A stretch of 44,807 bases of DNA. Origin: a virus. Lineage: Duplodnaviria; Heunggongvirae; Uroviricota; Caudoviricetes. Location of the stretch: positions 1 through 44,807 of the IMG/VR virus record IMGVR_UViG_2541047834_000005; one strand, 5' to 3'. This document shows, in pieces, positions 26,250 to 29,370 of the stretch; the first letter of the stretch is position 1; every line of letters starts with the position of its first letter. The translations under genes were made by a program, and so were the position numbers. The notes beneath the pieces are model-generated. The model did no database searches. It was not told where the DNA came from and saw only the letters and a program-made list of their open reading frames with translations.

Positions 26250-26738
26250 CTATGCTACATGTTTAATTTTCTCTACACGTTTCCGGTTTTTAAACGCACT
26301 ATCCAGAACCGGGTAAATCATAAACAACGAAGCATTGAGGATTTCGTCAACTTCCCGGCGACAGGTTGCGAGCGATGGTTTTTGAATACGCCCGCCGCCA
26401 CGGCATAACATCTTGCGAGGTCTTGCGACACGATGATAGTAAGATGCAATGGCATGCTTGGAAGATCCATGAGCGTAGTAGCTGAGGAGGATGCCAAAGG
26501 CTTTCTTGTCAATGTACATGACGGAATCGACGACCTGAGAAATCAACATTCCGTCATCATCATTGCACATTGGCCTTGTCATAATTCTTCCCGGCTCTAC
26601 GCTCTCCATGAACTTCGCTATTACGCTGCTCATGCGCTTTTCCAGACGACCTGAATAAACCCATGCGCCCCACAGTTCAAGCCAGCCATTCAGCCACTCG
26701 TGCTGTTCTTTGGTGAGGTTTAGTTCTCTTATGCTCAT
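26250..26738 (-). CDS. Late gene antiterminator Q (non-lambda Q family)
   Basis: 162 aa with LELWGAWV...TRPMCNDDDGMLIS motifs typical of a lambdoid Q family; upstream of lysis genes. Confidence 0.7.
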   Translation of the reverse strand: MSIRELNLTKEQHEWLNGWLELWGAWVYSGRLEKRMSSVIAKFMESVEPGRIMTRPMCNDDDGMLISQVVDSVMYIDKKAFGILLSYYAHGSSKHAIASYYHRVARPRKMLCRGGGRIQKPSLATCRREVDEILNASLFMIYPVLDSAFKNRKRVEKIKHVA

Positions 26739-26923
26739 CGTCTTCCCCTCTTGCCCTGTTTGACCATCAGGACGCCGTTAACTATTACGTGACGCTCACC
26801 TTTGCTGTCTCGGTTGTACTTGAGCACTGTTCCTCTTGCACAGGAAAGCATCCTCGCCACCTCGGTCTGATTGCCTCGTGTCTGGATAAGAAGCTCTGGT
26901 ATCGTTTGAATTGTGGCGTTCAT
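26735..26923 (-). CDS. NinH-like small DNA-binding protein
   Basis: 62 aa with YGNQTEVARMLSCARGTVLKY, similar to lambda NinH. Confidence 0.6.
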   Translation of the reverse strand: MNATIQTIPELLIQTRGNQTEVARMLSCARGTVLKYNRDSKGERHVIVNGVLMVKQGKRGRR

Positions 26924-27282
26924 GCGTTCTCCAGTTCGGTGATTTTTATTCCAAGCCGTCCGCCTGGTACTTTCACACCACGAATTACGCGAATGTCATC
27001 GAATTGCTCGTCGTCTTCCGCAAATCCGGCGTGGATAAGGGAATCGAGTAAACCTTTCAGGATGTTATCGAGGTCGCGGCGGCGGGAGTCTGGAACGTCT
27101 GCGATGACTTTGATGCGGAGTCGTGATTTGGTGAAAATGTCTAACTTGAGTTGGCGGATGATTTGCTGAACGTCTTTTCGGTATTTCTGGCCTTTATCGC
27201 TGATGTAGTATTGGCTTCCCCGTCTTCGCCAGTAGGTATTCACCGACGGCGGGTATGGAAGCACAAACTGATATTCGTTCAT
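26920..27282 (-). CDS. rusA: RusA Holliday junction resolvase
   Basis: 120 aa with DVPDSRRRDLDN and GGRLGIKITE motifs. Confidence 0.85.
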   Translation of the reverse strand: MNEYQFVLPYPPSVNTYWRRRGSQYYISDKGQKYRKDVQQIIRQLKLDIFTKSRLRIKVIADVPDSRRRDLDNILKGLLDSLIHAGFAEDDEQFDDIRVIRGVKVPGGRLGIKITELENA

Positions 27283-27557
27283 TGGACAAACACCCTCCCA
27301 TTGTTAACCAATTTTTTAAGGGTAAGCACAATGGCCCGCTCCATTTCAGCCCTTCGCTCTTCCCTGCTCATATCTCTCCCATTATCAATTCTTGAATGAC
27401 AATCAACACATAGCGCAGCAGTAAGGCAATCATCTACTTTAATCCCAACCCCCTTCCCTTCATTTCTGTGAGCGGCCTGAACTCCGTATCTTCCGCAAAG
27501 AACGCAAAATTCAATATCCCTGACTGCCTGAAGCCATTTTTTGCTTCTAAACATCAA
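27279..27557 (-). CDS. DUF1364/YbcO-like Cys-rich putative nuclease
   Basis: 92 aa with C-x2-C...AH...C-x2-CH spacing. Confidence 0.5.
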   Translation of the reverse strand: MMFRSKKWLQAVRDIEFCVLCGRYGVQAAHRNEGKGVGIKVDDCLTAALCVDCHSRIDNGRDMSREERRAEMERAIVLTLKKLVNNGRVFVQ

Positions 27558-28056
27558 TCCCCTCCAAAAAACGTCGGTACGCTGATTTGTTTTTTATGTT
27601 GCACACTGTCTGCGCACAAACACCAAATTCTTTGGCTATATCTCTGTATTTGCCTTTTGATTTATATATTGATTTCACTTGTTCTGGCGTTAGTTTGCAG
27701 AAGTGATGATTAAAACCATGAACAAGCAACCCGGAATCAAATCCATGTTTCGCATTTTCTGTTCGCGTTACCCACTCAAGATTTTCAACTTTATTATTAA
27801 GTTTATTTCCATCCTTGTGATTAACTTCCGGTTTGCCATCTGGGTTATCAATAAATACTTCTGCAACAATTCTGTGAACCATTTTATATGATGGTCTTTT
27901 CCCGCCACCTGGATACAGACCGACAAATGCATATCCTCCTGGTTTAATGCCATGAGATAATTTTTTTGATTTACGGCATGAAATGATGTCTCCATTTTCA
28001 GTTACTTTATATATACCCTCAAAGCCGGGGATATCTTTTTCTTTAACATCATTCAT
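27547..28056 (-). CDS. HNH homing-endonuclease-like protein (NUMOD4 + HNH_3)
   Basis: 169 aa; GFEGIYKVTENGDI (NUMOD4-like) and NHKDGNKLNNKVENLEW (HNH); AT-rich, interrupts the nin gene order. Confidence 0.7.
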   Translation of the reverse strand: MNDVKEKDIPGFEGIYKVTENGDIISCRKSKKLSHGIKPGGYAFVGLYPGGGKRPSYKMVHRIVAEVFIDNPDGKPEVNHKDGNKLNNKVENLEWVTRTENAKHGFDSGLLVHGFNHHFCKLTPEQVKSIYKSKGKYRDIAKEFGVCAQTVCNIKNKSAYRRFLEGIDV

Positions 28057-28261
28057 CGTCTTCTTCCTCGTACATTGAGCTATTCGGATCGCTCATCAGT
28101 TCTGCGCAGCAGTGCTCACACACGTGAACTTCCAGCACATGCAGCTTCTGACCGCAGTTAGCGCACGTTAAAGCCCGCTCGACGCTTTCTTGTTCGTAAC
28201 TTCGATTTGGGTCAATCACCTTGTTTTCCTCGCACGATGTCTTAGCCACCGGATATCCCAC
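28049..28261 (-). CDS. NinF-like protein
   Basis: C-terminal [39 protein letters not shown] as in lambda NinF. Confidence 0.6.
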
Positions 28262-28398
28262 AGGTGAGCCGTGTAGTTGAAGGTTTTTACGTCAGATTCT
28301 TTTGGGATTGGCTTGCGTTTATTTCTGGAGCGTTTCGTTGGAAGGTATTTGCAGTTTTCGCAGATTATGTCGGTGATACTTCGTCGCTGTCGTCTCAT
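28216..28398 (-). CDS. NinE
   Basis: Internal start [52 protein letters not shown], lambda NinE-like; ATGA overlap with upstream gene. Confidence 0.7.
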
Positions 28399-28933
28399 GC
28401 CGCCCTCCTGACGCCCTGCCCGATCGCCATCAATGCCGCTTTGCATACGGTGGTAAACATCCGTCGAGGACTGATGAACGGTCGCCAAATCAGCAGCATG
28501 GAGCCTTTGCTGTTTCCCTTCTTCTCCAGCCCTGTCGATGGTTCGATAAAATTAATCCGTCCATCAGTGATAATGCGAACTTCGTCGACACTCTCCAGAG
28601 CCTTGCTGAACCATCCGACTGACATATCCTCTGGCACAAGCATCACTACCGTCTGTCGCTGTTGTATGCACTGCTCAGCGGCTTTTTCCACCCACGGCCT
28701 GATATTGCTGTACGGTGGGTTATTCCAGATTGCACCGTGGCTTACCCACTCAGAATTGAGCGCGTCGTCGGCCTCAGTTAGCCAGTGAGCACACAGAGCA
28801 TTTTTGTCGCTCGCTGCCGAATCCAGCCAGAATCCAGCCAGAATCCAAACTCAATATCCAGTGCATCAAAAAGCCAAAGCGGCGTTTGCCAGCAGTCCTT
28901 GTCGTGTGCTGGCGTATTTGATTTGATAGTCAT
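28395..28933 (-). pseudogene. Phage Dam-like DNA N6-adenine methyltransferase, frameshifted by an 11-bp tandem duplication
   Basis: 5' fragment (MTIKSNTPAHDKDCWQTPLWLFDALDIEFGFWLD...) and 3' fragment (...NNPPYSNIRPWVEKAAEQ...IIWRPF) are in different frames; removing one copy of the repeat at 28821-28842 restores one ORF. Confidence 0.65.
28821..28842. repeat. Perfect 11-bp tandem duplication (atccagccaga x2) at the methyltransferase frameshift point
   Basis: Read directly from sequence. Confidence 0.85.
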
Positions 28934-29370
28934 GCAGCCCGATCTCCCCATCTCGCTTTCCACTCCAGAGCCAGTCGCGCTTCGTCCGACCACTTAACGC
29001 CACGCTCTGTACCGAATGCCTGTATAAGCTCTAATAACTCCGCAAATTCGCTTACACGCATCCTGCTGGTTGACTGGCCTATTACCACAAAGCCATTCCC
29101 GGCAAGGTTAGGAACAACGTCCTGCTGCTTTAATGCTGCGGTAAACACACACTTCCAGCTTTCTGCATCCAGCCAGCGACCATGCCATTCAACCTGACGC
29201 GAAACGTCACCAAGGCAAGCCCAAAGCTTTCGATTCTGGTCTAAGCTGCGGTTGCGCTCCTGAATGATCACTACGATTGGCTTGGTTGGGTCTGGAAGGA
29301 TTTGCTGTACTGCGTGAATAGCGTTTTGCTGATGTGCTGGAGATCGAATTTCAAAGGTTAGTTTTTTCAT
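28930..29370 (-). CDS. ninB: NinB recombination protein
   Basis: Near-identical to lambda NinB from MKKLTFEIRSPAHQQNAIHAVQQ. Confidence 0.85.
   Translation of the reverse strand: MKKLTFEIRSPAHQQNAIHAVQQILPDPTKPIVVIIQERNRSLDQNRKLWACLGDVSRQVEWHGRWLDAESWKCVFTAALKQQDVVPNLAGNGFVVIGQSTSRMRVSEFAELLELIQAFGTERGVKWSDEARLALEWKARWGDRAA

Follow-up and report, generated by a model that had tools for sequence, protein, structure and literature searches.

Homing endonucleases have been well studied in virulent phages, such as those of the T-even and SPO1-like groups, and little in temperate lambdoid phages. I-HmuI, from the Bacillus phage SPO1, is encoded within a group I intron of the DNA polymerase gene and nicks one strand. 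The T-even enzymes MobE, SegF and SegG, which are free-standing HNH or GIY-YIG proteins, reportedly bring about intronless homing and marker exclusion, with co-conversion of the flanking DNA. Among P22-like and lambdoid phages, gene 31 of epsilon34 consists of the N-terminus of eaE fused in frame to an HNH homing endonuclease (PMC2629481). Here we analyze a 169-residue HNH gene located in the nin operon of IMG/VR virus record IMGVR_UViG_2541047834_000005, a Caudoviricetes sequence of 44,807 nucleotides (this whole stretch is called the window), together with orf91, a gene for a putative 91-residue small nuclease that directly follows it.

The protein has the same three-part build as the 174-residue I-HmuI and keeps the general-base histidine and both asparagines of that enzyme, whereas its gene is free-standing in a lambdoid nin operon and an asparagine occupies the position of Asp74. 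Like those of MobE, SegF and SegG, the gene is free-standing, packed between conserved genes and sporadic among relatives. However, the T-even enzymes belong to virulent T4-like phages and have mapped cleavage sites, while the present gene resides in a temperate lambdoid phage or prophage and its activity is predicted from sequence; furthermore, the neighbour that would be co-transferred here is a whole, diverged substitute for a resident gene. The resemblance to epsilon34 gene 31 lies in 18 relatives of the window HNH protein that open with codons of a resident gene, although gene 31 belongs to the early left operon, concerns another resident gene and has been reported only once, and the window copy itself is leaderless. 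With slightly better than even confidence, we propose that the HNH gene is a free-standing homing endonuclease aimed at the slot normally occupied by DUF1364 genes, with its cleavage, target, homing and any marker exclusion being predictions from comparative analysis.

The block between ninF and rusA

Homology between the window and the lambdoid phages HK97 and mEp043 ends at the ninF stop and returns exactly at the rusA ATG. The original prediction, which had suggested aligning relatives devoid of the HNH gene, described a simple insertion of that gene into the nin region. The alignment does place the edges of the block at these two positions, but the block is larger than the HNH ORF and comprises two genes, as it also includes orf91, a DUF1364-like ORF before rusA that had been overlooked and that cannot be aligned at the DNA level with gp66, the DUF1364 gene of HK97. 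Because orf91 is also heterologous, the unit is a cassette of two genes and 0.78 kb, which takes the place of roi (or of a 70-residue ORF) and gp66.

The gene that follows ninF differs among relatives: roi in HK97, the 70-residue ORF in mEp043 and vB_EcoP-683R2, and the HNH gene in the coliphage Dewey, all three with an identical 8-nt overlap on the ninF stop. The neighbours named originally are confirmed: on the same strand, NinB, NinE and NinF, along with a frameshifted Dam gene, precede the HNH gene, and RusA, NinH and Q come after it, with orf91 in between; the idea that they form an interrupted order fits less well, given that other genes fill the slot in relatives. The overlap of the HNH start with the ninF stop was correctly noticed (Table 1), as was the AT-rich composition: the GC content of the HNH ORF is 36.5% (27.6% at third codon positions, GC3) versus 49.7% for the whole window, and only 3.4% of 510-bp segments are as AT-rich. 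A scan for promoters and terminators returned 2 promoter-like sites, against 2.7 expected in shuffled sequence, and 0 terminators; since this yield is no greater than that of shuffled sequence, it gives no pointer to separate transcription of the HNH gene.

A different joint is seen in E. coli QML220601 (L006 2857-2895) and in the IMG/VR loci L116 and L117 (2960-3000), where the cassette follows roi. There, 27 nt of an HK97-type gp66 5' end are followed by ~13 nt resembling the ninF 3' end and then by the window-type HNH gene, so that the joint falls within a short, imperfect homology of gp66 codons 7-12 and the ninF tail.

This layout bears on an alternative that we consider unlikely, namely that HNH-orf91 is one interchangeable allele of the slot, spread by ordinary recombination in its flanks without being driven by the endonuclease. 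Such a passive module would account for the presence of at least three slot contents (roi, the 70-residue ORF and HNH) with the same overlap on ninF, for boundaries that coincide with gene edges, the usual position of mosaic joints in lambdoid phages, and for the rarity of the cassette, found in 0.6% of genomes. What it explains less well are the invariant catalytic residues and the purifying selection acting on the enzyme, the diversity of the cassette relative to its flanks and the recurrence of one left junction, all of which are described below.

Table 1 Features of the cassette and its flanks, in window coordinates, listed from upstream to downstream
Feature	Position	Strand	Basis
ninF, 56 aa, GTG start, conserved left flank	28049..28219	minus	Pfam NinF
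Upstream cassette boundary ATGAATGA, ninF stop/HNH start overlap, 8 nt	28049..28056	minus	
HNH gene, predicted 169-aa I-HmuI-like endonuclease (NUMOD4 + HNH_3 + C-terminal helix-turn-helix)	27547..28056	minus	ATG-start ORF; Pfam, PHROG, PADLOC and PDB matches
NUMOD4-like N-terminal beta-strand DNA-binding region (predicted), aa 7-48	27913..28038	minus	Pfam PF07463; model strands E6-59
HNH_3 catalytic core (predicted), aa 58-102, with N79, H80 (27817-27819), N92 and N101	27751..27885	minus	Pfam; I-HmuI alignment
C-terminal helical (helix-turn-helix-like) DNA-binding domain (predicted), aa 124-166	27559..27687	minus	Model helices; Foldseek alignment to I-HmuI
HNH stop/orf91 start overlap ATGTTTAG, 8 nt	27547..27554	minus	
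orf91, 91 aa, diverged DUF1364/DUF968-like small His-Me-finger (putative nuclease) gene	27279..27554	minus	PHROG 131; hhalign
Downstream cassette boundary ATGA, orf91 stop/rusA start overlap	27279..27282	minus	Homology with HK97, mEp043 and 683R2 resumes
rusA, conserved right flank	26920..27282	minus	Pfam RusA

Two further features of the window lie outside the cassette. The gene for a Dam-type N6-adenine methyltransferase (28395-28993), which has ninB and ninE as its neighbours, is broken into two ORFs; compared with HK97, an 11-bp tandem duplication (TGGATTCTGGC) at about 28819-28847 shifts the frame, and the gene is likely a pseudogene. The left end (1-3674) contains a PEBP-family ORF (1-477), a GtrA-like ORF (926-1288), a GtrB-like ORF (1285-2202) and a 491-residue multi-pass membrane ORF (2199-3674) that has no Pfam match and is located where the window is most AT-rich (GC down to 0.27). 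As a group they resemble an O-antigen glucosylation module of the gtrABC type, as carried by prophages.

The HNH protein and orf91

Both domains originally assigned to the 169-residue ORF are matched above the Pfam cut-offs, with HNH_3 spanning residues 58-102 (E=6.2e-11; 42.2 bits versus 24.8) and NUMOD4 (PF07463) spanning residues 7-48 (E=1.1e-6; 29.2 bits versus 23.4). The protein additionally matches PHROG 59, 'HNH endonuclease' (E=1e-50), and the PADLOC model 'HEase', for homing endonuclease (E=1e-24). Two other functions were examined and set aside. PADLOC assigned no defined defence-system component, the HNH protein matching generic HEase models only and orf91 none, and a defence-system reading was dropped on that basis; NCBIfam matched neither protein. 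A packaging role was rejected on position alone: HNH proteins of the HK97 gp74 type assist terminase in packaging and are encoded next to the terminase genes or cos, while the gene studied here belongs to the nin region, with ninF and rusA on either side and with Q and the lysis genes further downstream.

Among solved structures, the only one matched by sequence was I-HmuI (PDB 1U3E; E=9e-19), with residues 6-121 of the HNH protein aligned to residues 3-116. The alignment pairs D74, H75, N87 and N96 of I-HmuI with N79, H80, N92 and N101, respectively. Shen et al. (2004) are said to have assigned to the I-HmuI residues the roles of general-base histidine, structural asparagine, metal-binding asparagine and, for Asp74, metal ligand. 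In an alignment of 38 relatives, N79, H80, N92, N101 and H104 are all invariant. The HNH catalytic residues H80, N92 and N101, whose presence had been left for an alignment to decide, are therefore conserved, and N79, being invariant as well, is the normal residue of this clade. An AlphaFold2 (AF2) model built on the same alignment is confident over the full length (mean pLDDT 90.6), and a Foldseek search of the PDB with this model returned I-HmuI as its sole significant match, over 162 columns that include the C-terminal helices (30% identity, E=2e-10). These helices are modelled at H124-132, H137-144, H148-155 and H161-166, in a domain that also gives a weak Pfam match to the CENP-B_N helix-turn-helix and that carries a conserved motif, YRDIG..FGVCAQTVCNIK. 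Judging by the alignment and the model, the HNH protein is an enzyme of the I-HmuI type, in which a beta DNA-binding region at the N-terminus is followed by an HNH active site and a C-terminal helix-turn-helix.

In pairwise comparisons of the HNH relatives, synonymous sites are saturated while the nonsynonymous divergence (dN) is 0.2-0.3. Because of this saturation the dN/dS ratios (dS, synonymous divergence) are unusable and only the qualitative result, dN far below dS, was kept; it indicates that the HNH-orf91 pairing is old and that the enzyme is under purifying selection. We regard as very improbable the idea of an inactive relic, in which the gene would formerly have been mobile but its product would have lost the ability to cut, leaving it to persist by hitch-hiking. 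The asparagine found in place of the Asp74 metal ligand, the existence of a deleted copy (see below) and the rarity of the cassette would all agree with loss of activity. Against this, N79 is the residue normally found in the family, dS is saturated and dN far lower, confidence in the model is high over the entire chain, and the ORF remains intact in 33 of the 34 E. coli genomes that carry it, at 98.2-100% identity.

The second cassette gene is more diverged. In the program-made ORF list orf91 begins with a TTG (27557; 92 aa), but RefSeq and phage annotations use the ATG one codon on, at 27554 (91 aa), and it is this start that gives the 8-nt overlap with the HNH stop. The product matches PHROG 131 (E=1e-30), and RefSeq labels a 62%-identical homologue 'DUF1364 family protein'. 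The gene resembles HK97 gp66/YbcO and the DUF968 and Ref-like genes, occupying the same slot just before rusA or Q, with a similar length and a core motif, KG.G.K.DD...C..CH..ID, shared by orf91 and the DUF1364/DUF968 proteins. Unlike gp66/YbcO, it falls below the Pfam cut-offs for both YbcO (PF07102; 19.4 versus 29.9 bits) and DUF968 (19.8 versus 27.8 bits), shows a CxxC N-terminal ligand pattern, and can be aligned with gp66 over about 26 core columns only (hhalign, 94% probability, E=1.4e-7). As regards a His-Me-finger fold like that of YbcO (PDB 3G27), the PDB sequences searched by profile gave nothing significant, and a single-sequence AF2 model of orf91 was poor (pLDDT 53). On the strength of these alignments, orf91 is a distant relative of the DUF1364/DUF968 proteins. 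In the published classification of His-Me fingers, the HNH_3/I-HmuI enzymes form group 2 and the DUF1364/DUF968 proteins form group 7, whose neighbours include RusA, Q and antirepressor genes (PMC5714182).

Distribution, spread and relatives of the cassette

To follow the cassette across phages, positions 26700-28700 of the window were compared by megablast with phage records. Only 2 of the 431 related records, the P22-like coliphages Dewey and Louie, cover this region in full; HK97, HK140, mEp043, HK022, HK620 and others cover about 46-60% of it. Dewey and Louie infect K-12 and carry the cassette, whereas HK97, HK022 and mEp043 do not have it. Among 5,426 complete E. coli genomes, the HNH gene is present in 34 (0.6%), always on the chromosome and with an identical copy in strain 042, while the flanks are found in 2,102. 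The gene is thus far from universal in related phages; universal carriage was the outcome that the original prediction had named as speaking against it. RefSeq names it 'NUMOD4 motif-containing HNH endonuclease', and it is also annotated in Dewey and Louie. The literature that we consulted contains no description of the cassette, of its DUF1364-type linkage or of the leaders described below, and the genome announcement of Dewey and Louie is silent on the HNH gene.

The genetic backgrounds of the cassette were classed in 19 IMG/VR loci that carry the window type together with a visible Q gene. Although the HNH-orf91-rusA-ninH block is constant in all of them, the adjoining Q gene is of the window type in 6, of the HK97 type in 6 and of the 683R2 type in 7, and upstream of the cassette lie NinE-NinF, NinX-NinF, Dam, roi or a second HNH gene. 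In 17 of the 19 loci, nucleotide diversity is 0.0076 for HNH and 0.0044 for orf91, as opposed to 0.028 for rusA and 0.029 for ninH, placing the cassette 4-7 times below the two downstream genes. Sliding-window analysis of 15 of these loci reveals a step at the orf91/rusA junction. Leftward, diversity climbs ~45 nt upstream of the HNH start, but the left edge of the cassette cannot be placed more precisely because this stretch of ninF is also invariant in cassette-free phages, with the last ~55 nt identical in HNH-carrying and HNH-lacking phages. Such low diversity on varied backgrounds indicates that one cassette haplotype, orf91 included, has spread recently. This weighs against a passive module, the cassette being so much more uniform than rusA and ninH in spite of three Q types and several upstream arrangements.

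The second HNH gene seen upstream of the cassette is an observation in its own right. In L113 (2299-3000) and L125, ninF is interrupted by an HNH_3 gene of 168 aa (Pfam E=1.2e-19) that is unrelated to the first, with codons 1 to about 36 on one side and the last 16 on the other, so that these phages carry two tandem HNH genes. Additional HNH_3 genes, one of them with an AP2 domain, occur in nin/Q regions (L007 314-826, L009 2996-3544, L120 1286-1474, and phages N7 and HZ41), at sites downstream of Q, two genes ahead of the cassette and close to ninB. HNH genes seem to have accumulated repeatedly in this part of lambdoid genomes.

The two cassette genes do not always travel together. In E. coli AH19B041 (L007 2348-2527), an in-frame 330-bp deletion removes the HNH domain and leaves a 59-residue NUMOD4-only ORF with orf91 intact; L125 (1540-1701) has what looks like a similarly truncated copy. 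The window-type orf91 is present in 37 E. coli genomes, of which 33 have an intact HNH gene, 1 has the deleted HNH and 3 (RM8082, DETEC-S565 and NCTC9104) lack HNH, with an orf91 of 98.5% identity immediately after another member of the ninF family. In nine further genomes an orf91-type gene of ~69% identity, annotated as DUF1364 family, occurs without an HNH gene. Genes of the orf91 type are therefore able to stand alone.

More distant relatives of the HNH protein, with 58-75% identity, are encoded in E. coli, Salmonella, Citrobacter koseri, Klebsiella aerogenes and Superficieibacter, the others being on metagenome contigs. In all contexts examined, a small nuclease gene follows with an overlap of 8-14 nt; this is an orf91 homologue or, in two cases, a gene for a Ref-like RecA-dependent nuclease. 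The neighbours upstream include NinF with an 81-residue ORF, a 100-residue ORF, a cytosine methylase and DUF1367, while RusA or Q lies downstream of the pair. Two comparisons delimit the unit: the homology of L008 and L009 begins with the leader ATG and ends with the orf91 stop (4001 to about 4805), the DNA on either side being unrelated, and the span common to L011 and L017 reaches only from the HNH start to the orf91 end. An exchange of HNH independent of orf91 was considered for L011 and L015, where the HNH protein differs much more than orf91 does, and was rejected, as the nucleotide profile shows both genes diverged; on this profile, the contrast reflects different constraint and not a clear recombination event.

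At 46-54% identity (Haemophilus, Neisseria and a metagenome contig) the order is reversed, and a complete DUF1364 gene or a Ref-like gene lies immediately upstream of HNH. In one metagenome contig (L102, 1764-2076), the DUF1364 gene that directly precedes an HNH relative of 51% identity is spread across two frames, which is either a real frameshift or an assembly error. All examined relatives with at least ~46% identity adjoin a DUF1364, DUF968 or Ref-like gene, and below ~45% (L189 and L190) the DUF1364-type association is gone. A scan of genome contigs returned mostly distant, generic NUMOD4-HNH genes, with only L017, L018 and L022 being informative.

Such a persistent association could also mean that the HNH nickase and the DUF1364-like His-Me-finger protein are domesticated, co-inherited phage partners, with possible roles in starting recombination or in replication-linked processing together with NinB and RusA, or in making a double-strand break by two nicks. 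In Escherichia, Salmonella, Citrobacter, Klebsiella and Superficieibacter the two genes have stayed paired while synonymous sites became saturated, their stop and start overlap, distant relatives adjoin Ref-like RecA-dependent nuclease genes or complete DUF1364 genes, and the neighbouring genes are recombination genes. We nevertheless regard this as distinctly unlikely, since orf91-type genes stand alone in 12 E. coli genomes, orf91 is intact where the HNH domain has been deleted, gene order and the subfamily of the small nuclease vary between lineages, and most lambdoid phages have the small nuclease without an HNH gene.

A closer look at the N-termini of the 58-75% relatives reveals that most of them open with the N-terminus of a genuine DUF1364 protein. 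In P0003, for example, the leader MANLRKEARGRECQV is followed by LDIDGYVGRY, while HK97 gp66 begins with MANLRKEARGRECQVRIYG. In L008 and L009 the leader DNA tracks gp66 for 44-45 nt and then diverges, and the DNA upstream of the leader differs between the two loci. Eighteen leader-bearing proteins contain 16 distinct leaders; in nine of these proteins the leader, of 7 distinct types, is an exact N-terminal 14-mer of a natural DUF1364 protein, in a comparison with 34 natural variants drawn from the top 120 gp66 relatives, and the junction is confined to about codons 13-18. That the leaders track real DUF1364 allelic diversity suggests repeated recombination of the left edge with resident DUF1364 genes at one place, a recurrence that a passive module would not lead one to expect.

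Proposed homing at the DUF1364 slot and its significance

In the proposed homing mechanism, the HNH gene would be expressed from the early-right (nin) operon, probably translationally coupled to ninF upstream and to orf91 downstream; given this place and the probable coupling, the enzyme would be expected during lytic growth. It would then nick or cut a cassette-free phage or prophage in or beside the DUF1364 gene, possibly near gp66 codons 13-18 (GAATGCCAGGT^ACGTATTTACGG). Repair would be templated by the cassette-bearing genome, with crossovers in the ninF 3' end and in rusA, so that a copy of HNH and orf91 would take the place of the resident genes, with orf91 making up for the loss of the displaced DUF1364 gene. 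In favour of this proposal are the family, fold and conserved active site of the protein, the sharp limits, rarity and low diversity of the cassette, the decay of one copy, the conserved pairing and the DUF1364 leaders of relatives, as well as the precedent of epsilon34 gene 31.

Several observations weigh against homing. An empty allele, with both flanks homologous and HNH alone missing, was not found in the 5,426 E. coli genomes searched with the region and with orf91; the alleles without HNH differ by two genes or keep orf91 behind a different ninF-family gene. Heterologous blocks flanked by conserved genes are commonly exchanged in lambdoid mosaicism without the help of an endonuclease, and a frequency of 0.6% speaks against efficient drive. 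The overlaps at both ends of the gene, together with the saturated dS and the conserved pairing, resemble a long-resident member of the operon rather than a recent invader, and the asparagine at the Asp74 position affects a metal ligand of I-HmuI. The window copy, in turn, has no leader and its start is fused to the ninF stop, which we take to be the derived state. Finally, the DUF1364 leader could stem from an internal deletion in an ancestor with the order DUF1364-HNH, as seen in Haemophilus and in the metagenome contig.

A more specific form of the homing proposal, which we put forward only tentatively and consider rather unlikely, is that the cassette is a 'cleave-and-rescue' selfish element, in which HNH would cut the conserved 5' end of the ordinary DUF1364/ybcO-type gene of rival lambdoid phages and prophages, orf91 would be a diverged substitute that cannot be cut, every repair would exchange the rival gene for HNH and orf91, and the leaders of relatives would be scars left by repeated invasion of different resident alleles.

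The mosaic evolution of lambdoid phages is usually ascribed to undirected recombination, and the present case ties a nuclease gene to one mosaic joint. Should the enzyme not cut, the locus would amount to one more annotated HNH gene in a variable slot. The case is of value mainly because existing phages allow a direct test of the homing hypothesis. Cutting of the DUF1364 slot by the enzyme, if it occurs, would show that gene replacement driven by a nuclease shapes lambdoid mosaicism, and would make the cassette a natural instance of an endonuclease accompanied by a replacement for the very gene that it destroys.

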